A stretch of 24,000 nucleotides of DNA from the NCBI GenBank assembly GCA_963533245.1, contig CAUSOO010000018.1:7129-31128 (forward strand), written 5' to 3'. A model generated the notes under the pieces. The model was given only the letters and a program-made list of their open reading frames with translations. It was not told the DNA's origin and did no database searches. Source of the stretch: an uncultured Neisseria sp. (GTDB lineage Bacteria > Pseudomonadota > Gammaproteobacteria > Burkholderiales > Neisseriaceae). This document shows, piece after piece, positions 1 to 16,960 of the stretch. Numbering within the stretch: the first letter of the stretch is position 1; each line of letters begins with the position of its first letter. Made by a program: the position numbers and the translations under genes.

Positions 1-369
1 ACGACCTCGGAAAGGTTTTGCCGCAAGTCAGATTGGAATATAAATATAATGATTTTGATTATTATTTGTATGATTTTTTGAGATTTTAACAAGTTTTTAA
101 GCGCATGCAAACATTTGCCAGATATATCCGCATTCAATAGTTAAAATGATTTAAAAACCTATTCCATTGTTTAACATAAAAATATTCCATTTTTTATATA
201 ACCCATATAGGCAAACAAGAAATTCAAAAATAAAAATTGCCTGAATATGTCTTATCAGCTGGTCAAAACACTTTCTTACCATTCAAACGAAAAATCCTAA
301 CCAAGCCCATAAGGCATTTTCAGACGACCTTTTTAGCTACCTGCTTTAGGTTCTTTTTCTCATGTGGCT

Positions 370-389
370 CAAACTGCTCAAGCAGTTTG
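370..389 (+). promoter_or_regulatory. Perfect 8-4-8 inverted repeat (CAAACTGC-TCAA-GCAGTTTG) about 60 nt upstream of gabD. It could be an operator or an attenuator hairpin.
   Basis: Read directly: 370-377 is the reverse complement of 382-389, followed by CGCTTTTAT. It lies between a DUS at 319..330 and the gabD RBS/ATG at 452. Confidence 0.3.
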
Positions 390-451
390 CGCTTTTATCC
401 TATGAGGAGAATAATGACTTCCATCCATCATCTATACACACGAGGACAGGC

Positions 452-1888
452 ATGAACTCTTTTGCATCATTGTTAAACCATCCCGATATTTCTTTTCTTC
501 CGATTCCAGACAGTATCAAAGTCGATAATCCGGCAACGGGCGAGACTTTGGCGTTTGTCCGCACAACCCGTTCAGACGGCCTCAAGCTGCTGATTCAAAA
601 GGCGGAGGCTGCACAAAAATTATGGGCGGCAAAAACTGCGTTGGAACGCGCCGATGTGTTGTGGCGTTGGTATTTTTTGATGAAGGAGAACAAAGAAGAA
701 CTGGCGCGCATCATGACGATGGAACAGGGCAAAAGCCTGACCGAGGCGCGCGGCGAAATCGATTATGCGGCTTCGTTTGTGCGCTGGTTTGCCGAAGAAG
801 CGCGGCGGATTGACGGCGATGTGCTGACGAGCGTGAAAGCGTCGCAAAAACTGGTCGTGTTGAAACAGCCCGTCGGCGTTACCGCTGCGATTACGCCGTG
901 GAACTTCCCGTCCGCAATGATTGCGCGCAAGGCCGCGCCTGCTTTGGCGGTGGGCTGCGCGATGATAGTCAAACCTGCATCGCTCACGCCCCTGAGCGCG
1001 TATGCGCTGGCCTTGCTGGCTTACGAAGCGGGCGTGCCGCAGGATTTGCTACCCGTCGTCAGCGGCCGCGCTTCGGAAATCAGCCATGAATTTGCCACGA
1101 ACCCGACCGTGCGCAAAATCAGCTTTACCGGTTCGACCAAAGTCGGCGCGAAAATTTTTGCCGACAGCGCGGCGGACATTAAAAAACTCAGTTTGGAACT
1201 GGGCGGCAACGCGCCGTTTATCGTGTTTGACGATGCCGATTTGGACAAAGCCGTCGAAGGCGCGCTGGCGAGCAAGTTCCGTAACAGCGGCCAGACCTGC
1301 GTCTGCACCAACCGCGTGTACGCTCAATCGGGCATTTACGACGAATTTTGCCGCAAATTAAGCGAAAAAGTAGCCGCGCTCAAATTGGGCAACGGTTTGG
1401 ATGAAGGCGTGAACCAAGGGCCGCTGATTGAGGGAAAAGCGGTGGAGAAAGTCGAGCAGCACATCGCCGACGCGCTCTCAAAAGGCGCGGTCTGCCTGAC
1501 CGGCGGCAAACGCAGCGCGTTGGGCGGAACGTTTTTCGAACCGACCGTCTTAAGCGGCGTAACGGCGCAAATGGCGGTGGCGCGCGAAGAAACCTTCGGG
1601 CCGTTGTGTCCCGTATTCCGCTTTGCAACTGAAGCCGAAGTCATCGCGGCTGCCAACGATACGGAATACGGTTTGGCGGCCTACCTCTTCACTGCCGACA
1701 CCGCCCGCCAATGGCGCGTCGGCGAAGCCTTGGAATATGGCATGGTCGGCATCAATACCGGCCTAATCAGCAATGAAGCGGCACCGTTCGGCGGCGTGAA
1801 ACGCAGCGGACTGGGACGTGAAGGCAGCAAATACGGTGCGGACGAATATTTGGAATTGAAATATTTGTGTATCGATGTAGCGGATTGA
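452..1888 (+). CDS. gabD: NAD(P)+-dependent succinate-semialdehyde dehydrogenase (aldehyde dehydrogenase superfamily)
   Basis: The ORF track frame 362..1888 matches E. coli GabD as I recall it along its length (AITPWNFP, LELGGNAPFIVFDDADLDKAVEGALASKFRNSGQTCVC, EETFGP, GREGSKYG). I chose the internal ATG at 452 because it follows a GAGGA-like RBS and gives a GabD-like N-terminus. The upstream 30 codons contain a hairpin. Confidence 0.9.
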   Translation: MNSFASLLNHPDISFLPIPDSIKVDNPATGETLAFVRTTRSDGLKLLIQKAEAAQKLWAAKTALERADVLWRWYFLMKENKEELARIMTMEQGKSLTEARGEIDYAASFVRWFAEEARRIDGDVLTSVKASQKLVVLKQPVGVTAAITPWNFPSAMIARKAAPALAVGCAMIVKPASLTPLSAYALALLAYEAGVPQDLLPVVSGRASEISHEFATNPTVRKISFTGSTKVGAKIFADSAADIKKLSLELGGNAPFIVFDDADLDKAVEGALASKFRNSGQTCVCTNRVYAQSGIYDEFCRKLSEKVAALKLGNGLDEGVNQGPLIEGKAVEKVEQHIADALSKGAVCLTGGKRSALGGTFFEPTVLSGVTAQMAVAREETFGPLCPVFRFATEAEVIAAANDTEYGLAAYLFTADTARQWRVGEALEYGMVGINTGLISNEAAPFGGVKRSGLGREGSKYGADEYLELKYLCIDVAD

Positions 1889-1901
1889 GTTTAGTCTCAG
1901 G

Positions 1902-1913
1902 AGGTCGTCTGAA
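1902..1913 (+). repeat. DNA uptake sequence, AGGTCGTCTGAA dialect
   Basis: Exact 12-mer, 14 nt after the gabD stop codon. Confidence 0.9.
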
Positions 1914-2183
1914 AACGTAACTTCAGCAAGATAATCTCCCCCTATCTTTGCAGCACTCTGAAAAAATTGGCGGAAATCAACAAATACGCGATATAAGACT
2001 AACGTATCGTGCAACTGATGAGTTCGCCAAATATTTTGCTGGGGCAACGACACCAAACTTTAAGGCTCACTGGATAGTATGGGAAAGTCCGTTACACAGC
2101 CGGCAAACAGGGGAGATATAGTGGATTTGAAACTGTTTACTTGAAACAATAATTTTTAAAGCAATAACATAGGAAAAAAGAAA

Positions 2184-2537
2184 ATGAAAAGATTGTTTAT
2201 ATTTGCTCTAGCTTGCTTTACTGCGAGCTGTACTGTCACACCAAAAGTCGAATCATTGCCTGATGCAGAATTAAATAAGCCATATTTCATAGAATTTAAT
2301 GTGGCCAATCAAGCCACTTATCCCGATCATTTCATAGTAGAAATGGATCCTCCGAATTCGGGGTTAACTGTAAAGCCCATCGATAAGTGGTATGATACGG
2401 TTCATATTTCTGGAACTCCACAGACCAAACAGGATATTACGATTGAAATTTCTTATTATATAAGAGGGCCAGGAGGATTTTTGGGATTGGGAAAGAAGGA
2501 TCATAAGAAATTTTATCAGATAAAAGTTAAAGAATGA
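2184..2537 (+). CDS. Hypothetical small lipoprotein (117 aa), AT-rich
   Basis: The N-terminus MKRLFIFALACFTASC looks like a signal peptide with a lipobox-like TAS-C. GGAAAAAAG lies upstream. G+C is low (21/60 counted at 2281-2340). I recognise no family. Confidence 0.5.
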   Translation: MKRLFIFALACFTASCTVTPKVESLPDAELNKPYFIEFNVANQATYPDHFIVEMDPPNSGLTVKPIDKWYDTVHISGTPQTKQDITIEISYYIRGPGGFLGLGKKDHKKFYQIKVKE

Positions 2538-2665
2538 GTTAAGGTTATCTGACCTGAAGGTTTAGTTTAGATAGCTTTTCTCTAAGAAAGGATTGTTCAT
2601 ATTTCAAGAAAGCACTGTGTTGTTTACATAACAGGCGTAGGTTGAATTGGAAGCCTAACTTTCTC

Positions 2666-2697
2666 AAAGGTCGTCTGAAAGTTTTCAGACGACCTTT
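2666..2697. terminator. Inverted DUS pair forming a hairpin (AAAGGTCGTCTGAAA / TTTCAGACGACCTTT) with flanking A and T runs
   Basis: The arms at 2666-2680 and 2683-2697 are perfect reverse complements. A T-run follows. Confidence 0.5.
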
Positions 2698-2754
2698 TTA
2701 CTAATGGCAGTCGTTCCGTTCGATTGTTCATGCAACAGAAGAAACGGAAGATGA

Positions 2755-2911
2755 TATAGTGGATTAACTTTAAACCAGTACGGCGTTGCCTCGCCTTAGC
2801 TCAAAGAGAACGATTCTCTAAGGTGCTGAAGCACCAAGTGAATCGGTTCCGTACTATCTGTACTGTCTGCGGCTTCGTCGCCTTGTCCTGATTTAAAGTT
2901 AATCCACTATA
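2755..2911. mobile_element. Correia repeat-enclosed element (CREE), full-length 157 bp form
   Basis: Starts TATAGTGGATTAACTTTAAACCAGTACGGCGTTGCCTCGCC and ends with the inverted TTAATCCACTATA. This is the characteristic Neisseria Correia terminal inverted repeat and core. Confidence 0.93.
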
Positions 2912-3031
2912 TATCGAGTATAAACTCTGGAAAAACAATTTCCTGAAGCCGCGACCGGCTTCGTATCACTTGCGTTTTCTTCGGCTGACAAATTGGCATA
3001 AAAGTGTATTGTTAATCTTTTCATCATCAAT

Positions 3032-3068
3032 AAAAAAACCAACCTCTCAAAGGTCGGTTTTTTTTATT
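3032..3068 (-). terminator. Bidirectional rho-independent terminator closing the minus-strand thrS...ihfA-MerR-like cluster
   Basis: A-run, stem ACCAACCT/AGGTCGGT (one mismatch), 5-nt loop, then a T-run. It lies 25 nt downstream of the stop codon at 3093. Confidence 0.6.
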
Positions 3069-3092
3069 TTTCGCAGAAATACGAAATGGCGA

Positions 3093-3407
3093 TTATGAAT
3101 GCGCTTCCAAATCTGCCAAGATTTGATTCAGGCTATCCCTAACCTCTTCTGCCTTTGCAGCAGGATGACCGTTTGCATCCAAAGAATCACGGCTGAAGCG
3201 GTCGACATAAGGCGCAAAGGTATCTTTCAGCTTCAAAAGCTTCACCACATCGGAACGGGTGTAACGATCGCCGCCGTAACCGACAACGATACCGTTCTCA
3301 TGTTGCCACTGGGCAAATTGTGACGGGCTGATTTGCACCAGTTCGCACATTTCGTCCAGCGAGAAATAACGTTTTGCAGGAATAACGGGATTAACGTTGT
3401 TTGTCAT
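3093..3407 (-). CDS. Small MerR-family-like DNA-binding protein (104 aa) immediately downstream of ihfA
   Basis: The segment [44 protein letters not shown] fits the MerR-type HTH and wing pattern. I chose the ATG at 3405-3407 (MTNNVNPV), which overlaps the ihfA stop region by 17 nt, rather than the longer track start at 3446. Confidence 0.65.
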
Positions 3408-3693
3408 AGTAATGCTCCACCATGCCTTTGAGTTTTTGGCTGGCATGGAAAGTGACTACGCGGCGGGCGGTAATCGGTACTTCTTCGCCGGTTTTCGGAT
3501 TACGGCCGGGACGCTGCGGTTTGTCGCGCAACTGAAAATTACCGAAACCGGAAATTTTGATTTCTTCGCCGCGTGCCAAAGTGCTGCGGATTTCTTCAAA
3601 AAAGAGTTCGACGATTTCTTTGGCATCGTTTTTGGTTACATTGCTGACTTTATCTACCAAAATATCGGCCAATTCGGCTTTAGTTAATGTCAT
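3391..3693 (-). CDS. ihfA: Integration host factor subunit alpha
   Basis: 100 aa with DNABII hallmarks ([26 protein letters not shown]). It sits in the conserved position after pheT. Confidence 0.95.
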
Positions 3694-3766
3694 ATTATTA
3701 CCTTCTGTTGTAACAGGTGCAGATTATTACCAATTTCTATTTAAAATTCAAGCGAATATTTATTTT

Positions 3767-6130
3767 TTAGCTGCGAAGTTGCGCTCCTGCAGCAGTTGCC
3801 GCATCAATCAGTTTTCCGATAACCGGCTCGACTGTTTCATCCGTCAGCGTGTTTTCCATATCCTGCAAAATCACTTTAACTGCCATGCTCTTCATCCCTT
3901 CAGGCAGGCCCGTACCGCGATACACGTCAAATACGCTGATTTCCTGTACCAACTTGTTTGTCGCGCCGTTCAAGGCGGCCAACAAATCATCATGGATCAT
4001 GGTTTCAGGCATCACAAACGCCAAATCCCTGCGCACCGGCTGAAATTTCGATACTGCCTGATAACGCGTTTTTTCGCGTTCCAACACGGCTGCCATATCG
4101 ATTTCAAATACCAGCGGTGCTTGCGGCAAGTCGTATTTTTGCAGCCATTTTGGATGCAATTCGCCGACAAAGCCGATAACTTGGCCGTCTGAAACGATAT
4201 TGGCAGCACGGCCGGGATGCAGGGCGGGATGTTCGGTTTTAACGAACTCAACCGCTTTGTTTTTCAACAGATTTTCCACATCCGCCTTGATGTCGTAAAA
4301 ATCCGCGTTGCGCGTTTTCTCGCCCCACTGTTCGGGCATCGCCACGCCGTACCACAGGCCGCCGATGCGTTCGTTTTGTACAAACAGGCCGTCTGAATCC
4401 TTGCTGAACACGCGGGCGATTTCAAACACACGCACGCGGTTTTGCTTGCGGTTCAGATTGTTTTGCAGAATTTCCACCAAGCCGCCGATAAGCGTGGAAC
4501 GCATCACGGCATACTGCGCCGCCAGCGGATTTTGCAGGCGGATGGGGTTGGCGTTGGCGGCAAAATCGTGTTCCCACTGCTCGTCAACGAAGGCATAGCT
4601 GACTACTTCGCGGTAGCCGCGCGCCGCCATTTCGTTATAAACGGCAAAACGCGGACGGCGGGTTTCGGGCAGTGCCAGCATTTTCAGACGACCTGACGTG
4701 TAATCGTCGGGGATATTTTCATAGCCGTAAACGCGGCCGATTTCTTCAATCAAATCGGCTTCGATTTCGATGTCGAAACGAAAGCTCGGCGCGGTAACGC
4801 GGAAGCCTTCCGCCGTTTTTTCAGGCTGCAAGCCCAAGTGCTGCAAAATGGTTTCCACCTGTTCGGCAGGAATGTCCACGCCCAACACGGTCTTCAGACG
4901 ACCCAAACGCAATTCGACCTGCTTCGCTTCAGGCAATTCGCCCTGCGCTTCCACCATTTCTCCTGCCGCACCGACGCAGATTTGCAAAACCAATTCGGTA
5001 GCGCGTTCGATGGCGTCAGCCTGCAAACGGTAATCCACGCCGCGCTCAAAGCGGAACGACGAATCCGAGCCAAAACCGTATTGGCGCGATTTGCCAGCAA
5101 TAATTTCAGGCGCAAACCAAGCCGCTTCCAGCACGATATTTTGCGTGTCGTCTGAAACCGCGCTTGCCGCGCCGCCCATCAATCCTGCCAAACTCAACGC
5201 GCCTTTTTCATCGGCTACCACCAGCGTATTTTCAGACAAAGAGACGGTTTTCTCGTTCAGGCATTCCAGCGTTTCACCTTCGCGCGCGCGACGAATGTGC
5301 AGGCTGCCTGAAAGTTTGTCGGCATCGAAAACATGCATCGGCTGACCGATTTCCAGCATCACATAATTGCCAATGTCCACCAGCGCGGAAATACTGCGGA
5401 TGCCGCTGCGCTCCAAACGCTGCTTCATCCAATCCGGCGTGGCGGCGCGCGCGTTCACGTTTTCAATCACGCGGCTGATAAAGCGGCCGCAATCGGCAGG
5501 CGCATCAATCTGCACGGGCTGTTTGCGGCTGCCCGTGATTGGCGCGGCATGGATTGCAGGCTGCTTGAACGCGCAACCCGTCAGCGCGGACACTTCACGC
5601 GCAATGCCTTTGATACTCAGGCAGTCGGCACGGTTCGGCGTGATTTTCAGCGTGAACACCGTATCGTCCAAATCCAAATATTCACGGATGTTTGCACCGA
5701 CGGGCGCGTCTTGCGGCAGAATGTGCAAGCCGTTCACGCCGTCGTCAGGCAGACCGAGTTCGTCGGTGGAACACAACATGCCGTTCGACACCACGCCGCG
5801 CATCTTGGTCGGCTTGATTTTGAAATTGCCCGGCAACACCGCACCCGGCAACGAACACGGCACTTTGATGCCCGCTTTCACATTCGGCGCACCGCACACA
5901 ATCTGCACCAACTCGCCCGTACCCGCATCGACTTGGGTAACGTTCAAACGGTCGGCATCAGGATGTTTTTCAACGGATTTCACTTCGGCAATCACCACAC
6001 CCGTAAACGCAGGCGCGGCAGTCTCGGCTTCTTCCACTTCCAAGCCGGACATGGTTAACAGATGTTCCAGCTTATCGGCGGAAAGTTCGGTATCGGCTTG
6101 GGTTTTCAGCCATGAGTAGGAGAATTGCAT
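3767..6130 (-). CDS. pheT: Phenylalanine--tRNA ligase beta subunit
   Basis: 787 aa. It has the N-terminal tRNA-binding domain (MQFSYSWLK...VVIAEV...HPDADRL), the B3/4 and B5 domains and the C-terminal FDX-ACB region, all typical of PheT. Confidence 0.97.
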   Translation of the reverse strand: MQFSYSWLKTQADTELSADKLEHLLTMSGLEVEEAETAAPAFTGVVIAEVKSVEKHPDADRLNVTQVDAGTGELVQIVCGAPNVKAGIKVPCSLPGAVLPGNFKIKPTKMRGVVSNGMLCSTDELGLPDDGVNGLHILPQDAPVGANIREYLDLDDTVFTLKITPNRADCLSIKGIAREVSALTGCAFKQPAIHAAPITGSRKQPVQIDAPADCGRFISRVIENVNARAATPDWMKQRLERSGIRSISALVDIGNYVMLEIGQPMHVFDADKLSGSLHIRRAREGETLECLNEKTVSLSENTLVVADEKGALSLAGLMGGAASAVSDDTQNIVLEAAWFAPEIIAGKSRQYGFGSDSSFRFERGVDYRLQADAIERATELVLQICVGAAGEMVEAQGELPEAKQVELRLGRLKTVLGVDIPAEQVETILQHLGLQPEKTAEGFRVTAPSFRFDIEIEADLIEEIGRVYGYENIPDDYTSGRLKMLALPETRRPRFAVYNEMAARGYREVVSYAFVDEQWEHDFAANANPIRLQNPLAAQYAVMRSTLIGGLVEILQNNLNRKQNRVRVFEIARVFSKDSDGLFVQNERIGGLWYGVAMPEQWGEKTRNADFYDIKADVENLLKNKAVEFVKTEHPALHPGRAANIVSDGQVIGFVGELHPKWLQKYDLPQAPLVFEIDMAAVLEREKTRYQAVSKFQPVRRDLAFVMPETMIHDDLLAALNGATNKLVQEISVFDVYRGTGLPEGMKSMAVKVILQDMENTLTDETVEPVIGKLIDAATAAGAQLRS

Positions 6131-6162
6131 GTTATGTTCTCAAAAAATGTAGGTTGTAATAA

Positions 6163-7164
6163 TTAGAATTGCAAGGTAGTCCGGTGCCGTACATCTGTTT
6201 CAGATAGTAGGGATTTTATATCACCATAAAGCCTAGACAGTGGTCTTAAAAAATCGGTACCGTTGATGTTTTTTGGCATTTCCCTATTATTCTTACTATA
6301 AAATTCAAAGATCTGATTATAGGTATTTGTTTTATTTTCCTGCTGTTTCAGAGATACAGGAATATCTGGCAGGTACATTGCCAAAAATCCAACCCTTTGG
6401 AAATTACGGATTTTAGCTTTACTGGTAAATTCTTTATAATCGGTGAAAAAGCCAACACCCAGAATATCTGTGGTATAGCCAGAAGCCAACAGCCTCTCAC
6501 GGGCAAAATTCGATTTGACGGACAACCATAAGTTATTGGGCAGACACATCAGTACAAAATCACCATAAGACTGGATTTCCGGATTGTTGGTTTTAAAAAA
6601 ATGTATGCCATCGATCAAATCAGCCAAAGCCCTTTCCAGCAACATTTCAGAAATAGTTCCCAAATTAGACACCCCACTCTGTGATTCGGATTCAGTTTGC
6701 CGTCTCACCCATGCCAAACGATTTAAATCATCTATTTCAGTCTTAAAGCGGATAAAATTTTCCGAATCAACCTCCTCACCAACCAACAGAGCAATTACTT
6801 TCAGAGTGATCTCTGCTTTTAAGTGGATATGTTTTAATACCAAGCCGAATACCGGAAATTCAGCAACAAAAATCCAAATCAGTTTTTGATACGGGTTATT
6901 ATCATACCTAGGTATCTCGACAGAACAGGATTTTCTTAACGCAGACTGTTCACTTTTGCTCATTTTTGCATATAAGTCGATAATTTCATCTTTAAAATCA
7001 TCAGCATCCAATTCCATCAGTTTACCTTGAGACGGTAATGCATTGTAAAGCAACCGATATACTGGACGGTAAAATCCGTCTGCAATTTCTTGACTGAAGT
7101 GGCTGAAATCAGGTTCAGACGACACTTCTATGCCCCTGATACATTTCACCGAAACATCTTCCAT
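6163..7164 (-). CDS. Putative type II restriction endonuclease, assigned by context only (333 aa from ATG 7164; 344 aa if TTG 7197 is used)
   Basis: A long AT-rich ORF divergent from a cytosine-5 DNA methyltransferase and near a vsr gene. I could not recognise any family motif by eye. AAGAGG lies 11 nt before the ATG at 7162-7164. Confidence 0.45.
   Translation of the reverse strand: MEDVSVKCIRGIEVSSEPDFSHFSQEIADGFYRPVYRLLYNALPSQGKLMELDADDFKDEIIDLYAKMSKSEQSALRKSCSVEIPRYDNNPYQKLIWIFVAEFPVFGLVLKHIHLKAEITLKVIALLVGEEVDSENFIRFKTEIDDLNRLAWVRRQTESESQSGVSNLGTISEMLLERALADLIDGIHFFKTNNPEIQSYGDFVLMCLPNNLWLSVKSNFARERLLASGYTTDILGVGFFTDYKEFTSKAKIRNFQRVGFLAMYLPDIPVSLKQQENKTNTYNQIFEFYSKNNREMPKNINGTDFLRPLSRLYGDIKSLLSETDVRHRTTLQF
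7114..7123 (-). repeat. DUS 10-mer core (GTCGTCTGAA on the minus strand) inside the putative endonuclease gene
   Basis: Exact TTCAGACGAC on the plus strand. Confidence 0.7.
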
Positions 7165-7240
7165 AAATTTAAAAACCTCTTGGCTTTTTACAATCAAAAA
7201 GATAAAATGTGCTTAATCTGGTACATTTATAGACCCTGAT

Positions 7241-8314
7241 ATGAAGCAAATCCACATCAAATTAAACGACGAACTACACCAAAAATTGTCCACATACTGC
7301 AAACTAAACCATTTAAGTATCCAAGACTTTGTAGAATCTCAATTATTTTCGAGTCTATACAAGTCGCAAACTCCCCAAAACGCACCCTTTCGGTTTATCG
7401 ACCTTTTTGCTGGAATCGGCGGAATCCGGTTGCCTTTTGAAGAATTGGGAGGGCAATGCGTATTCAGTTCCGAAATCGATAAATTTGCCAAAACAACCTA
7501 TCAGGCATTCTATGGAGATGTCCCGCATGGCGACATTACACAAATCGCTCCGTCCGAAATTCCTGATTTCGACCTGTTACTAGCCGGATTTCCCTGCCAG
7601 CCATTCAGCCAAGCAGGATTGAAAAAAGGCTTTACTGATACACGCGGTACAATGTTTTTCCATATAGAAGAAATCATCCGCCAAAAGCATCCTAAAGCTT
7701 TTCTATTGGAAAACGTAAAAGGTTTAAAAGGACACGATAAAGGTCGGACATTCCAAACAATCTATGACTCTCTGACTGCGCTCGGCTATACTGTCAATGC
7801 CAAAGTAATGGCAGCTAAAGATTTCAACCTACCCCAAAACCGTGAACGGATTTATATAGTCGGCTTTCGCTCAGCAAAAGATGCCGCACAATTTGAATTT
7901 CCCCATCCCTTACCTAAAACCGTGAAGGTGGGAGATATCTTGGAATCCTTCCCCGATGCCAAATATACAATTTCAGACAGACTTTGGCAGGGACATTTAC
8001 GACGCAAAGCCGAGCATAAACAGAAAGGAAATGGTTTTGGTTACGGTCTGTTCAATGCACAATCCGAATATACCAACACTATTTCAGCACGTTACTATAA
8101 AGATGGTTCTGAAATTCTAATTGAACAGGAAAATACCAACCCGCGCAAACTTACTCCATTAGAAGCTGCAAGATTACAGGGATTTCCTGATGAAATCGTT
8201 CTCAAAGCGCGTAAGCGGGGGGTATCAGATGTGCAACTTTACAAACAATTTGGTAATTCCGTAGCTGTAAATGTCATTCGCAGCATTGCCCAAAAAATAG
8301 TTCCTCTACTATAA
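7241..8314 (+). CDS. DNA (cytosine-5)-methyltransferase with an N-terminal extension of about 45 aa resembling a ribbon-helix-helix domain
   Basis: Canonical m5C motifs are present: I DLFAGIGG, IV GFPCQPFS, VI ENVKGL, VIII QNRERIYIVG, X QFGNSVAV. Motif I begins near residue 53. An in-frame stop at 7214 leaves the ATG at 7241 as the only start. Confidence 0.93.
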   Translation: MKQIHIKLNDELHQKLSTYCKLNHLSIQDFVESQLFSSLYKSQTPQNAPFRFIDLFAGIGGIRLPFEELGGQCVFSSEIDKFAKTTYQAFYGDVPHGDITQIAPSEIPDFDLLLAGFPCQPFSQAGLKKGFTDTRGTMFFHIEEIIRQKHPKAFLLENVKGLKGHDKGRTFQTIYDSLTALGYTVNAKVMAAKDFNLPQNRERIYIVGFRSAKDAAQFEFPHPLPKTVKVGDILESFPDAKYTISDRLWQGHLRRKAEHKQKGNGFGYGLFNAQSEYTNTISARYYKDGSEILIEQENTNPRKLTPLEAARLQGFPDEIVLKARKRGVSDVQLYKQFGNSVAVNVIRSIAQKIVPLL

Positions 8315-8728
8315 CTTTTTTCTATTCAAAGAATCTGCAATCTGCTGAGCATATCGCTGGGGATTCTTAACAACATCCTTTCCCCAAAATCGAAAGACTT
8401 CCCAGCCCTCGGCTTTCAGACGGTCTGTTACTTCTATATCCCGTCGGATATTGCGTTCTATCTTAGCAATCCAAAATTCGCGGTTGCCCTTTATTTCCGC
8501 TTTTCTCTGTTCCCAATCCTTGCCGTGCCAAAACTCGCCATCGACAAATACGGCAACTTTGTATTTTTTAAATGAAAAATCAGGCTTCCCAAAAATGCTT
8601 CCGCTATTTTTCCGATACCTGAGCCCCAAAGCCCACATCGCTTTTGCCAACACAAGCTCGGGTTTCGTCCCTGTGCTTTTGTTGGACTGCATACATTTTT
8701 TGCGCTGTTCGGGGGTCAATTTATCCAT
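8309..8728 (-). CDS. vsr: Very-short-patch repair (Vsr-type) T:G mismatch endonuclease
   Basis: 139 aa. It aligns with E. coli Vsr as I recall it (TKPE, GKPDF, FVDGEFWHG, REFWIAKIERNIRRD, GWEVFRFW). It converges on the methyltransferase gene and overlaps it by 6 nt. Confidence 0.85.
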   Translation of the reverse strand: MDKLTPEQRKKCMQSNKSTGTKPELVLAKAMWALGLRYRKNSGSIFGKPDFSFKKYKVAVFVDGEFWHGKDWEQRKAEIKGNREFWIAKIERNIRRDIEVTDRLKAEGWEVFRFWGKDVVKNPQRYAQQIADSLNRKKL

Positions 8729-8730
8729 TA

Positions 8731-8742
8731 GAGTCGTCTGAA
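8731..8742 (+). repeat. DUS variant (GAGTCGTCTGAA) filling most of the 16-nt pheS-vsr spacer
   Basis: Read directly between the pheS stop (8745-8747) and the vsr start (8726-8728). Confidence 0.7.
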
Positions 8743-8744
8743 AA

Positions 8745-9740
<996 letters not shown>

Positions 9741-14766: not shown

Positions 14767-15666
14767 ATGTTTACCCAAGCAGCCCAAGAATTGACCACCG
14801 TCCGCGATATCCTGCGTTTCGCCGTCAGCCGTTTCAACGATGCCGGTTTGTTTTTCGGGCACGGCTCGGACAACGCGCACGATGAAGCCGCCTACCTCAT
14901 CCTGCACACCCTCAACCTACCGCTGGACACGCTGGAGCCCTACCTCGATGCCAAGCTGCTGCAAAGCGAGAAAGAAGAAGTGTTGTCAGTACTGGAACGT
15001 CGTGCAGTCGAACACATCCCCGCAGCCTACCTCACCCATCAGGCATGGCAAGGCGATTTCGATTTTTATGTTGACGAACGCGTCATCGTACCGCGTTCGT
15101 TTATTTACGAACTGCTCGGCGACAACCTTACACCTTGGATAGAACACCCCGAATTGGTTCACCGCGCATTGGATTTGTGTACCGGCAGCGGCTGCCTCGC
15201 CATTCAAATGGCACACCACTACCCCGCCGCTGAAATTGACGCCGTCGATTTGAGCTTGGATGCGCTGGAAGTAGCCGCCATCAACATCGAAGATTATGGA
15301 TTGGAAGAGCGCATCAACCTGATCCACACCGATTTGTTCGAAGGTTTGGAAGGCACATACGACCTGATTGTTTCCAACCCGCCCTATGTCGATGCCGAAT
15401 CGGTCGATATGCTGCCCGACGAGTACCTGCACGAACCCGAACTCGCCTTGGGTAGCGGCGAAGACGGCTTGGACGCCACCCGCCAAATCCTGCTGCACGC
15501 AGCCAAATACCTCAATCCCAAAGGCGTATTGCTGGTCGAAATCGGACACAACCGCGACGTATTGGAAGCCGCCTATCCCGAGCTGCCGTTCACTTGGCTG
15601 GAAACCAGCGGCGGCGACGGATTCGTATTCTTGCTGACCCGAGAGCAATTGCTGGGATTGGAATAA
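14767..15666 (+). CDS. prmB: 50S ribosomal protein L3 N5-glutamine methyltransferase
   Basis: It aligns with E. coli PrmB as I recall it (GHGTDN-like GHGSDNAHDEA, FYVDERVIVPRS, DLCTGSGC, NPPYV, HEPELALGSGEDGL, PFTWLE). Confidence 0.9.
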   Translation: MFTQAAQELTTVRDILRFAVSRFNDAGLFFGHGSDNAHDEAAYLILHTLNLPLDTLEPYLDAKLLQSEKEEVLSVLERRAVEHIPAAYLTHQAWQGDFDFYVDERVIVPRSFIYELLGDNLTPWIEHPELVHRALDLCTGSGCLAIQMAHHYPAAEIDAVDLSLDALEVAAINIEDYGLEERINLIHTDLFEGLEGTYDLIVSNPPYVDAESVDMLPDEYLHEPELALGSGEDGLDATRQILLHAAKYLNPKGVLLVEIGHNRDVLEAAYPELPFTWLETSGGDGFVFLLTREQLLGLE

Positions 15667-15682
15667 TCCCTTGCTGATTTTG

Positions 15683-15723
15683 ATACGGCCGAAAATCTTC
15701 TGCATATAGGTTTTCGGCCGTAT
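15683..15723 (+). terminator. Hairpin terminator after prmB (13-bp perfect stem)
   Basis: ATACGGCCGAAAA (15683-15695) pairs with TTTTCGGCCGTAT (15711-15723), followed by TTTTC. Confidence 0.55.
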
Positions 15724-15786
15724 TTTCATGATTGTGCTCGCCCCAAACCATTATTATTAACGTTGAACATATCCGTTTAATCTGTT

Positions 15787-15798
15787 TTCAGACGACCT
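15787..15798 (-). repeat. DUS (AGGTCGTCTGAA on the minus strand)
   Basis: Exact TTCAGACGACCT. Confidence 0.9.
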
Positions 15799-16016
15799 CC
15801 CTACACACAAAATCAATATTCCAATCGGAACCATTTCTTATATTTATTGTCTGTATTTAAATAAGCATTCATAAAAATATTATATTTAACCCGCATGACC
15901 TGATGGATTATAATGACGAATAACAGCCGGAATATGCTTTATTCAAATATTATCGACTTGACGACTCAACTAAATACCTATTATTTACATCTCCGCCACA
16001 TCGGAACAATCAGACA

Positions 16017-16754
16017 ATGAACCACTTTTGGACAAACAGCCTGACCGCCTGCATCCTGCTTGGCGCGTCGCTTCAAGCTTCGGCACAAACCCACTCCGTT
16101 TATTTCAATCAAAACGGCAAAATTACCGCCACAATGTCATCGGTAGCTTACGTCCGCCAATACACCGTCGAATCCGGCGTAGCGCAAGTGCAGGACTTTT
16201 ACTATCCGTCCATGAAAAAATATTCCGACCCGTATGAAATACCGGCGGCACAGATCAAAACCTTCGTTCCCGTCCTCAACAACGGTACTTTGACACTCTG
16301 GCATTTCAACGGGCAAAAGAAAATGATCGGCAGCTACCGCAACGGCAAGCCGAACGGCGAATGGACCAACTGGTACCCCAACGGTAAAAAATCGGCGGTC
16401 ATGCCCTATCTGAACGGCTTGAGTGAAGGCGTCGGCTCACGCTATTACCGCAACGGCACGAAAGAAAGCGAAATCCAGTTCAAACACGACAAGGCAAACG
16501 GCTACTGGAAGCAATGGTATCCCAACGGCAGCCCGAAAACCGAAATGACCATGGTCAACGACAAACCGACCGAAATCATGAGTTGGGACGAAAACGGCCG
16601 CGCCCTTTCTGAAATTACCATTACCAACGGCAAACGCAACGGCGTTGTCTTGGAATGGTATGACGACGGAGCCAAAAAGTCCGAAACGGTTTACGCCAAC
16701 GACCAAATAGTGAAAAAGACAAATTGGGACAAAGAAGGTTACGTTATTGAATAA
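16017..16754 (+). CDS. Secreted protein with MORN-variant repeats (YwqK family-like)
   Basis: It has a signal peptide ending LQASA-QT. It also has four or more repeats of the G-x-x-N/E-G-x-W-x-x-WY-x-NG-x-K type (GKPNGEWTNWYPNGKK, DKANGYWKQWYPNGSPK, GKRNGVVLEWYDDGAKK). Confidence 0.7.
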   Translation: MNHFWTNSLTACILLGASLQASAQTHSVYFNQNGKITATMSSVAYVRQYTVESGVAQVQDFYYPSMKKYSDPYEIPAAQIKTFVPVLNNGTLTLWHFNGQKKMIGSYRNGKPNGEWTNWYPNGKKSAVMPYLNGLSEGVGSRYYRNGTKESEIQFKHDKANGYWKQWYPNGSPKTEMTMVNDKPTEIMSWDENGRALSEITITNGKRNGVVLEWYDDGAKKSETVYANDQIVKKTNWDKEGYVIE

Positions 16755-16760
16755 CAGAAA

Positions 16761-16788
16761 AGGGAAACGATATGTTTCCTTTTTTTGT
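16761..16788 (+). terminator. Rho-independent terminator after the MORN-repeat gene
   Basis: GGAAAC-GATAT-GTTTCC followed by TTTTTTTG. Confidence 0.6.
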
Positions 16789-16960
16789 TTAAAACATCAC
16801 TACCCCCTACCAAATCATGCCGGCCTGACAGAGGTCATCTGAAACCTGCCGTCCCTAATGTCATAGAATTTACATTTAAATATCAACCGCTCCCCTTGTT
16901 CCTTTACAGATTTCGTTTAAAATACAACCCAAACAACAACTATTCAAATTACATAAAACT

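Follow-up and report, generated by a model that had tools for sequence, protein, structure and literature searches.

The gap between pheS and pheT is a documented hot spot of integration in Neisseria, and the methyltransferase, endonuclease and Vsr trio of NmeDI has been described from it (PMC7973814, PMC3082526, PMC2095814), together with lineage-specific differences in restriction-modification (R-M) systems (PMC7973814, PMC3082526). The R-M content of this gap is a marker that separates meningococcal lineages and is thought to restrict DNA exchange among them. Further points of reference are the gonococcal V.NgoAXIII, reported as a multispecific Vsr that suppresses C-to-T mutation in vivo (PMC6116569, PMC6789123); the SsoII/Ecl18kI systems, in which the N-terminal domain of the methyltransferase binds an operator in the divergent spacer between the endonuclease gene (R) and the methyltransferase gene (M) and coordinates their expression (PMC2760811, PMC3978073); and the CCGG family of endonucleases, which combines a PD…K…(D/E) active site with an R-(D/E)R triplet that opens the helix following the lysine (PMC6344858). 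Here we analyze a 24,000-nucleotide (nt) stretch of DNA from an uncultured Neisseria sp. (contig CAUSOO010000018.1, positions 7,129 to 31,128), hereafter the window, in which a putative endonuclease gene, a 5-methylcytosine (m5C) methyltransferase gene and vsr lie between pheS and pheT. We regard it as likely that these genes form an intact, horizontally acquired, Ecl18kI-like Type II R-M cassette with its own Vsr, probably specific for CCNGG, equipped with an uncharacterised nuclease, spread by transformation and housed in a member of the N. mucosa/sicca group.

Comparison with relatives that have an empty site reveals that the three-gene interval is a genuine insertion of foreign DNA. Relatives whose flanks are 95-97% identical align to window positions 1..6143 and from 8752 onward, with a 132-nt spacer between the two blocks; this spacer, with a hairpin and a DNA uptake sequence (DUS) of the mucDUS type, is conserved in the closest relatives (L005, L010, L012, L013, L014, and L028). 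Since their homology stops at 8752 and restarts at 6143, the cassette (6144..8751) replaces the whole native spacer, of which about 13 nt remain before the pheT start (…GAGAACATAAC ATG), and the last pheS codons are altered (…KQFK* in the window versus …KQFAK* in empty alleles). The pheS-pheT interval measures 2614 nt and contains 40.2% G+C, compared with 54.9% in pheT (3767..6130, minus strand) and 51.0% in pheS (8745..9734, minus strand), both confirmed by Pfam; the cassette itself stands at 0.40 against 0.51-0.55 in its flanks. The host genes belong to a minus-strand cluster, infC-rpmI-rplT-pheS…pheT-ihfA, and vsr and R share that strand while M runs antisense.

An earlier account of this DNA, made from the letters without database searches (the sequence-only reading), had placed a minus-strand open reading frame (ORF), a plus-strand methyltransferase and a minus-strand vsr in the gap with tight junctions, and this layout holds in every part. 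The 32 nt from the R stop codon to the pheT start occupy 6131-6162 (minus strand; only the last ~13 nt are native), and the 16 nt between pheS and vsr occupy 8729-8744. Its G+C counts, 19 of 60 at 6241-6300 and 41 of 60 at 5401-5460, are exact, and the DUS that it had located in the pheS-vsr spacer is present at 8733-8742 (plus strand) as GTCGTCTGAA, the mucDUS dialect and not the canonical GCCGTCTGAA. Two side observations concern these junctions. The 3' end of pheS is dimorphic, either …KQF(K/E) with a 16-23-nt spacer or …KQFAK with a hairpin of sim/king-type DUS-like repeats, and the two forms (the window at 8745-8760, L006, L016, and L029 versus L019, L018, L026, and the empty alleles) are distributed independently of cassette type. 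At the other junction, the end of R (…LQF*) resembles the start of pheT (MQF…) in a 14-nt direct repeat at 6121-6134 (AGAATTGCATGTTA) and 6165-6178 (AGAATTGCAAGGTA), which may be due to chance or be a trace of the junction.

The affiliation of the cassette is most readily seen in M (7241..8314, plus strand; 357 amino acids (aa)), which is M.Ecl18kI/M.SsoII-like and scores above the family cut-offs (PF00145, 344 bits against a cut-off of 22, E 1e-102; TIGR00675, 350 bits against 100.65). Its motifs are intact, namely FAGIGG (7406-7423), PCQ (7592-7600), ENV (7709-7717), QNRER (7835-7849), and GNSVAV (8252-8269). The best plasmid matches by tblastn fell on small enterobacterial plasmids, including the Ecl18kI plasmid pECL18, and identity to M.Ecl18kI reaches 62% over aa 46-357. 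The target-recognition domain (aa 210-301; 7868..8143, plus strand) aligns with that of M.Ecl18kI without a gap at 61% identity, its second half being almost identical through the stretch GFGYGLFN..S.YTNTISARYYKDGSEILIEQ; the corresponding values are 34% for Dcm (with gaps, Dcm having a long insertion), 23% for HpaII-like enzymes, and 7% for the NmeDI-like enzyme. At the level of sequence, these alignments show M to be a close relative of M.Ecl18kI/M.SsoII with a collinear recognition domain. Other methyltransferases, 65-68% identical to that of the window and bearing an HTH_3 N-terminus, were seen paired with quite different nucleases (L092:1850-6094; L093:2687-9152), the partners being a pair of RE_LlaJI and AAA_5 proteins or, in L093, an unnamed 241-aa protein with a Vsr beside McrBC.

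Because the target-recognition domain matches M.Ecl18kI gaplessly at 61% and Dcm, HpaII-like, and NmeDI-like enzymes far less well, methylation is predicted at C5mCNGG, and we hold CCNGG to be the probable target, with modest confidence. Against this prediction it must be set that specificity is not readable from M alone, since methyltransferases 65-68% identical pair with other nuclease types; the 241-aa nuclease candidate of L093, searched against the Protein Data Bank (PDB) and Pfam for a transfer of specificity, gave no match. Site avoidance likewise failed to discriminate between candidate targets. CCNGG is depleted threefold in the window, all of it from CCWGG and lineage-wide: under a maximal-order Markov model applied to the window and L002-L030, the observed/expected ratio (O/E) is 0.16-0.31 for CCWGG and GGWCC versus 0.87-0.99 for CCSGG, with or without a cassette. 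Across eight M-R modules only 2 CCNGG sites occur versus 26 expected, and GGNCC is equally depleted. As the depletion is lineage-wide and extends equally to GGNCC, site avoidance was rejected as evidence of specificity.

One alternative is a system of the same kind with another target, be it CCWGG (Dcm/EcoRII-like), CCSGG (the target of NciI from Neisseria cinerea), or another CC..GG variant. The recognition domain belongs to the Dcm/EcoRII/SsoII class as a whole, an identity of 62% does not guarantee the same specificity when related methyltransferases serve several nuclease families, and Neisseria DNA shows a strong depletion of CCWGG (O/E 0.16-0.18) but none of CCSGG. This depletion, however, also marks cassette-free genomes and so says nothing about the system of the window, and the recognition domain lies far closer to M.Ecl18kI than to Dcm, whose long insertion it does not have. 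We therefore treat a target other than CCNGG as possible but unlikely.

The first ~45 residues of M do not align with the helix-turn-helix N-terminus (~71 aa) of M.Ecl18kI. This part (aa 1-45; 7241..7375, plus strand), a presumed autoregulator, matches ParD with 20.3 bits, below the cut-off, and clear homologues of it in other methyltransferases (MKQIHIKL…) score above the cut-offs of FitA-like_RHH, HicB, and ParG; judged from these profiles, the N-terminus is of the ribbon-helix-helix type. The divergent R/M intergenic region (7165..7240, 76 nt) is 100% identical in L019 and contains a sigma-70-like site for M, with a -35 element at 7180-7185 and a -10 element at 7203-7208, as well as an inverted repeat, AAATGT-N12-ACATTT (7205-7210 and 7223-7228), over the -10 region. 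Comparable inverted repeats stand beside the M start in homologous loci. By analogy with SsoII/Ecl18kI, the repeat is a candidate operator on which the ribbon-helix-helix domain may exert a regulatory role. A caution applies to the promoter, in that such promoter-like sites were no commoner than in shuffled sequence.

The remaining gene, R (6163..7164, minus strand), encodes 333 aa from an ATG at 7164, the length of its homologues; a TTG at 7197 would extend it to 344 aa (6163..7197, minus strand). It is paired divergently with the PF00145 gene and its protein matched nothing in Pfam, NCBIfam, or PADLOC, although the R.Ecl18kI control was recognised by PADLOC (REase_II models). Family profiles of R (A1 and A3) found no match among PDB sequences by HMMER, and tblastn found none among PLSDB plasmids. 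R has 334 close homologues of ~331 aa, nearly all of them without names, and in every context that could be read the gene is arranged head-to-head with a PF00145 gene, the two being 90-220 nt apart. These contexts comprise a gammaproteobacterial metagenome-assembled genome (MAG), Aliarcobacter butzleri, an Oligoflexia MAG, a 2.5-Mb contig, a small mobilisable plasmid with relaxase and replicase genes, and several Neisseria contigs. When 1.84 billion representatives were searched with a profile, 115 clusters at 50% identity were recovered, including distant relatives of 200-350 aa that retain only the C-terminal core. Two of these distant relatives, on short contigs, are neighbours of a vsr, at its end, and of a Dcm-type methyltransferase, at its start.

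The conserved core (aa 160-270; 6355..6687, minus strand) carries the candidate nuclease residues. These are E173 (6646-6648), D202 (6559-6561), S215-V-K217 (6514-6522), R222-E223-R224 (6493-6501), D233 (6466-6468), and E245 (6430-6432), of which D202, K217, E223, R224, and E245 are invariant in the superfamily alignment A3, with the overall pattern GD…(S/E)-x-K-x3-A-(R/K)-E-R. The first position of the triplet is R or K across the superfamily, and one subfamily has the canonical E-x-K. In the AlphaFold2 (AF2) model (predicted local distance difference test (pLDDT) score 86.6), D202 precedes a strand, S215-V-K217 lies on the next strand, and the RER triplet starts a helix at 221-227; D202 and S-x-K217 fit a permuted PD…K…(D/E) site, and part of the superfamily carries the canonical ExK in its place. 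Aligned by hhalign with an Ecl18kI-family profile built from R.Ecl18kI and 26 homologues, the A3 profile scored Prob 62% and E 7.3e-5, pairing E173 with E125, D202 with D160, S-V-K217 with S-A-K182, and R222-E223-R224 with R186-E187-R188 (R and Ecl18kI, respectively). In addition, of 20 distant relatives scanned with Pfam, one gave an Mrr_cat match over the core, near but below the threshold, and the others gave none.

Several results weigh against reading R as a nuclease of the Ecl18kI kind, and they are best considered together. The narrow family profile found nothing, and a Foldseek search of the PDB with the full AF2 model recovered no nuclease, only chance matches with template modelling (TM) scores below 0.25. 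The conserved core (residues 160-270) is the least confident part of that model (pLDDT 55-76, versus >90 in the variable helical N-terminal half), and a model of the core alone (aa 135-333) was poor (pLDDT 63) and unfit for structure search. The spacing from K217 to RER is one residue longer than in Ecl18kI, and neither candidate for the third acid is fully satisfactory, D233 being invariant in the close family only and E245 invariant across the superfamily but far along the chain. The nuclease assignment is drawn from gene linkage together with a remote profile match of 62%.

We nonetheless infer, with good support and mainly from the invariant linkage and the motif, that the 333-aa ORF is an endonuclease. 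Its membership in the CCGG family is only plausible, because the narrow profile and Foldseek found nothing. The opposite case, in which the ORF is an accessory or regulatory protein and the locus a solitary methyltransferase with a Vsr, can appeal to the missing Pfam, NCBIfam, PADLOC, and PDB-sequence matches and to the lack of a Foldseek neighbour, although restriction endonucleases are often without detectable homologues. It would leave unexplained the strict pairing with an m5C methyltransferase, which holds in different phyla and on a plasmid, the invariant D, K, E, and R of the D…(S/E)xK…ER pattern with its canonical ExK variants, and an alignment that falls in register with both the active site and the recognition triplet of Ecl18kI, and we judge it improbable. 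The sequence-only reading had named homology to a non-nuclease family as grounds for abandoning the R-M interpretation; no such homology was found.

To place the insertion in a wider setting, pheS neighborhoods from 80 Neisseriaceae species representatives were surveyed, of which 74 loci also contained pheT. In these loci the pheS-pheT gap is between 60 nt and 3.5 kb long and exceeds 700 nt in 32 of the 74, with many unrelated cargoes. Occupants include HpaII-type R-M systems with Vsr (L006, L016, and L018; RE_HpaII E 2e-121), an NmeDI-type system with Vsr (L026), a Vsr with a methyltransferase remnant and an HNH gene (L029, the gonococcus, and L021), Vsr and methyltransferase only (L030), a CfrBI-like system (L031), a DpnII-like system (L039), a DpnI-like gene (L072), an AAA_21 ATPase with a partner (L073 and L075), and a GHKL-ATPase protein (L001). 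Nucleotidyltransferase-like pairs, metabolic genes, and several other non-defence genes also occur, the contents of L025, L057, and L061 lying outside this inventory. The comparison of this interval across Neisseria, which the sequence-only reading had recommended, thus portrays a hypervariable site and supports its proposal of a foreign R-M-plus-Vsr cassette at a known hot spot.

The same M and R genes were found in one of the 80 representatives, L019, and their composition is foreign, which is the reverse of the trio being present in all relatives with backbone-like composition, an outcome that the sequence-only reading had named as grounds against its interpretation. Ancestry of the trio in the pheST operon, with loss elsewhere, draws some support from the fact that four or more diverged contigs of Neisseriaceae have it at pheS/pheT (R identities of 100, 81, and 67%). 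Beyond its rarity among the representatives, the low G+C content, and the conserved 132-nt spacer of the closest relatives, ancestry is contradicted by the near identity of the module (99.5%) between lineages whose flanking genes differ by ~4%, and by the occurrence of the trio between gatA and gatB and of the M-R pair in unrelated phyla. We therefore consider an ancestral trio very improbable and retain the reading of a horizontally acquired cassette.

Further contigs indicate how the cassette is constituted. M-R pairs outside Neisseria are without vsr, and the order vsr(+) M(-) R(+) recurs in Neisseria-type contigs that carry DUS. L098 has pheS-vsr-M-R-pheT with an R 67% identical to that of the window, and L089 has pheS, a decayed vsr (pseudogene at L089:85-393), intact M and R, and pheT, with an R 81% identical. 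In L086-88 (L086:2415-4993), from Neisseria with canonical DUS, gatC-gatA is followed by a vsr with an internal stop, M, R, and an ORF starting MTWETVIGLE, which we take to be gatB. Because the vsr-M-R order recurs at both pheS/pheT and gatA/gatB, the trio is a coherent cassette, one that has lodged in the inter-cistronic gaps of two or more essential translation operons. A qualification comes from the vsr pseudogenes of L086 and L089, since parts of the cassette do decay.

The mobility of the cassette is illustrated by L019 (Neisseria sp. HMSC06F02), whose M-R module matches that of the window at 99.46% identity, with pheS at 95.7% and pheT at 96.0%, and whose pheS end and pheS-vsr spacer are of the other form. 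Because the module is so much closer than its ~96% flanks and the pheS end differs, these sequences point to a recent recombinational exchange in which the two crossovers fell in or near vsr and in pheT, respectively. The window also carries 28 copies of the mucDUS form GTCGTCTGAA against 5 of the canonical form, where 0.04 are expected by chance; this dialect presumably assigns the DNA to the N. mucosa/sicca/subflava group, and several genomes from that group match the flanks at 95-97% identity. One copy lies within R itself (7114..7123, minus strand), in a variable N-terminal stretch, and is absent from the matching peptide of non-Neisseria homologues. A 32-nt imperfect inverted repeat, noted separately, links 7095-7126 (R with its DUS) to the pheS end and DUS at 8730-8761.

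The vsr gene (8309..8728, minus strand) passes its family tests (PF03852, 132 bits against a cut-off of 27, E 6.5e-39; TIGR00632, 163 bits against 97.85, covering positions 2-119 of 119). Its product is 80-88% identical in amino acids to the pheS-adjacent Vsr of eight other Neisseria loci, gonococcal V.NgoAXIII included; the gonococcal Vsr at pheS has 137 aa and a 414-bp gene, the length reported for ngoAXIIIV. Judged by sequence, the Vsr of the window is of the same type as V.NgoAXIII, to which it is 86% identical and for which nicking 5' of T in T:G mismatches has been shown (PMC6116569). DNA homology to the other vsr cassettes at pheS/pheT runs from pheS to 8363 and ends there in every blastn comparison (L006, L018, L021, L026, L029, and L030). 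This recombination break falls at codon ~122, past the conserved Vsr domain, so that the 17 C-terminal Vsr codons and everything down to 6144 are cassette-specific, which shows that the common vsr gene provides one arm for swapping M-R modules. Our first view, in which vsr was a resident of the hot spot outside the cassette, was softened, as the same vsr-M-R trio is found at gatA/gatB and on other pheS/pheT contigs.

Whether the cassette is NmeDI-like or a new occupant had been left open by the sequence-only reading, and the comparison with L026, which matches the published NmeDI anatomy (M and R co-oriented, the first nine codons of R overlapping M, R of 351 aa; PMC2095814) and has an overlap of 29 nt, identifies a new occupant. 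Identity with NmeDI (RCCGGY/RCCGGB) or a close variant is suggested by the same locus, the same listed gene content of M, R, and Vsr (PMC7973814), and a Vsr 82% identical to that of L026, but it is hardly credible and was rejected at the sequence level, since R has no detectable similarity to the R of L026 (by tblastn, R matched no survey locus but L019), M is 28% identical with target-recognition domains at 7%, M and R are divergent and not co-oriented, and DNA homology ends within the 3' end of vsr at 8363.

Taken together, these results are compatible with the following mechanism for the horizontally acquired cassette. M would methylate the inner cytosine of CCNGG, and the 333-aa protein, as a Mg2+-dependent PD-(D/E)XK endonuclease and a distant relative of the CCGG family, would cleave incoming DNA wherever its sites lack methylation. 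D202 and K217 are its putative catalytic residues, and the (R/K)-E-R triplet that opens the next helix is predicted to read the CC:GG pairs. Vsr would nick the T:G mismatches that arise from deamination of 5-methylcytosine and so lower the mutational cost. The ribbon-helix-helix N-terminus may bind the inverted repeat over the M promoter and time M before R, a role played in SsoII/Ecl18kI by the helix-turn-helix N-terminus. The cassette would spread through DUS-assisted transformation and enter by homologous recombination, in pheS/vsr at one end and in pheT at the other. This mechanism stays within known R-M biology, and the cassette departs from the Ecl18kI/SsoII model in an uncharacterised nuclease, which may be a remote member of the CCGG family, and in a ribbon-helix-helix regulator.

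For commensal Neisseria, the locus adds a further pheS/pheT system, probably CCNGG-specific and recently moved between lineages, to the transformation barriers of the genus, and its uncharacterised endonuclease family might yield a new enzyme. The presence of the trio at gatA/gatB as well suggests that inter-cistronic gaps of essential operons are favored as landing sites. With the native spacer gone, transcription of pheT would have to run through the cassette or start from it. A bolder proposal, which we offer as speculative and rather doubtful, is that R founds a new branch of the CCGG family (helical N-terminal half, SxK/ExK plus (R/K)ER core, ~115 clusters), that the cassette is specialised for the pheS|pheT and gatA|gatB gaps, and that expression of pheT and gatB depends on it; if pheT or gatB were indeed expressed through or from the cassette, it would be stabilised beyond ordinary post-segregational killing. 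Elsewhere in the window, two other stretches of low G+C (0.37-0.41) were observed, at 1801-2800, with a small lipoprotein-like ORF (2184..2537) and a part (2255-2686) that matches several places in related loci, and at 15600-16800, with a 245-aa protein of repeated 'NG…W..WYPNG' units (16017..16754).

With the CCGG-family PD-(D/E)XK enzymes (NgoMIV, Cfr10I, Bse634I, SgrAI, BsaWI, AgeI, PspGI, EcoRII-C, and PfoI), R shares the Ser that replaces the acidic residue before the catalytic Lys, the basic-acidic-Arg triplet at the N-terminus of the next helix, and the Glu on the upstream helix (PMC6344858), whereas it has no sequence or Foldseek match to the solved members and many members of its superfamily have the canonical ExK. 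With NgoAXIII of N. gonorrhoeae (V.NgoAXIII plus a truncated methyltransferase) and the HpaII-like cassettes of N. lactamica, N. subflava, and N. sicca, the cassette shares the Vsr (80-88%; PMC6789123) and, between pheS and vsr codon ~122, DNA of 85-92% identity, an illustration of how M/R modules are exchanged behind a common vsr. Those cassettes differ in carrying HpaII-type M (and RE_HpaII R, E 2e-121), or remnants with an HNH gene, all in the orientation of pheS. NmeDI of N. meningitidis sequence type (ST) 11, which recognises RCCGGY and cuts on both sides, resembles the cassette in its pheS/pheT site, in having vsr first next to pheS, and in a Vsr of ~82% identity, and differs in an unrelated R, a distant M (28%), and another gene orientation (PMC2095814).

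The closest counterparts are Ecl18kI and SsoII (CCNGG; pECL18 and P4 of Shigella sonnei, respectively). Shared with them are a methyltransferase with 62% identity across its catalytic and target-recognition domains, an R and an M gene that diverge from a short spacer (70 nt in pECL18 and 76 nt in the window), an extra N-terminal DNA-binding domain on the methyltransferase of the kind shown to be regulatory there (PMC2760811, PMC3978073), and the nuclease motif order E…D…SxK…RER. The cassette departs from them in a ribbon-helix-helix N-terminus of ~45 aa where theirs is a helix-turn-helix of ~71 aa, and in a candidate operator AAATGT-N12-ACATTT where theirs is AGGACAAATTGTCCT. Its R is not of the PF09019/Ecl18kI family, which the R.Ecl18kI homologues carry, but a 333-aa protein whose N-terminal half is large and helical and whose profile match is no more than remote. 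Unlike both, the system of the window is chromosomal, is accompanied by a Vsr, and resides inside an operon.

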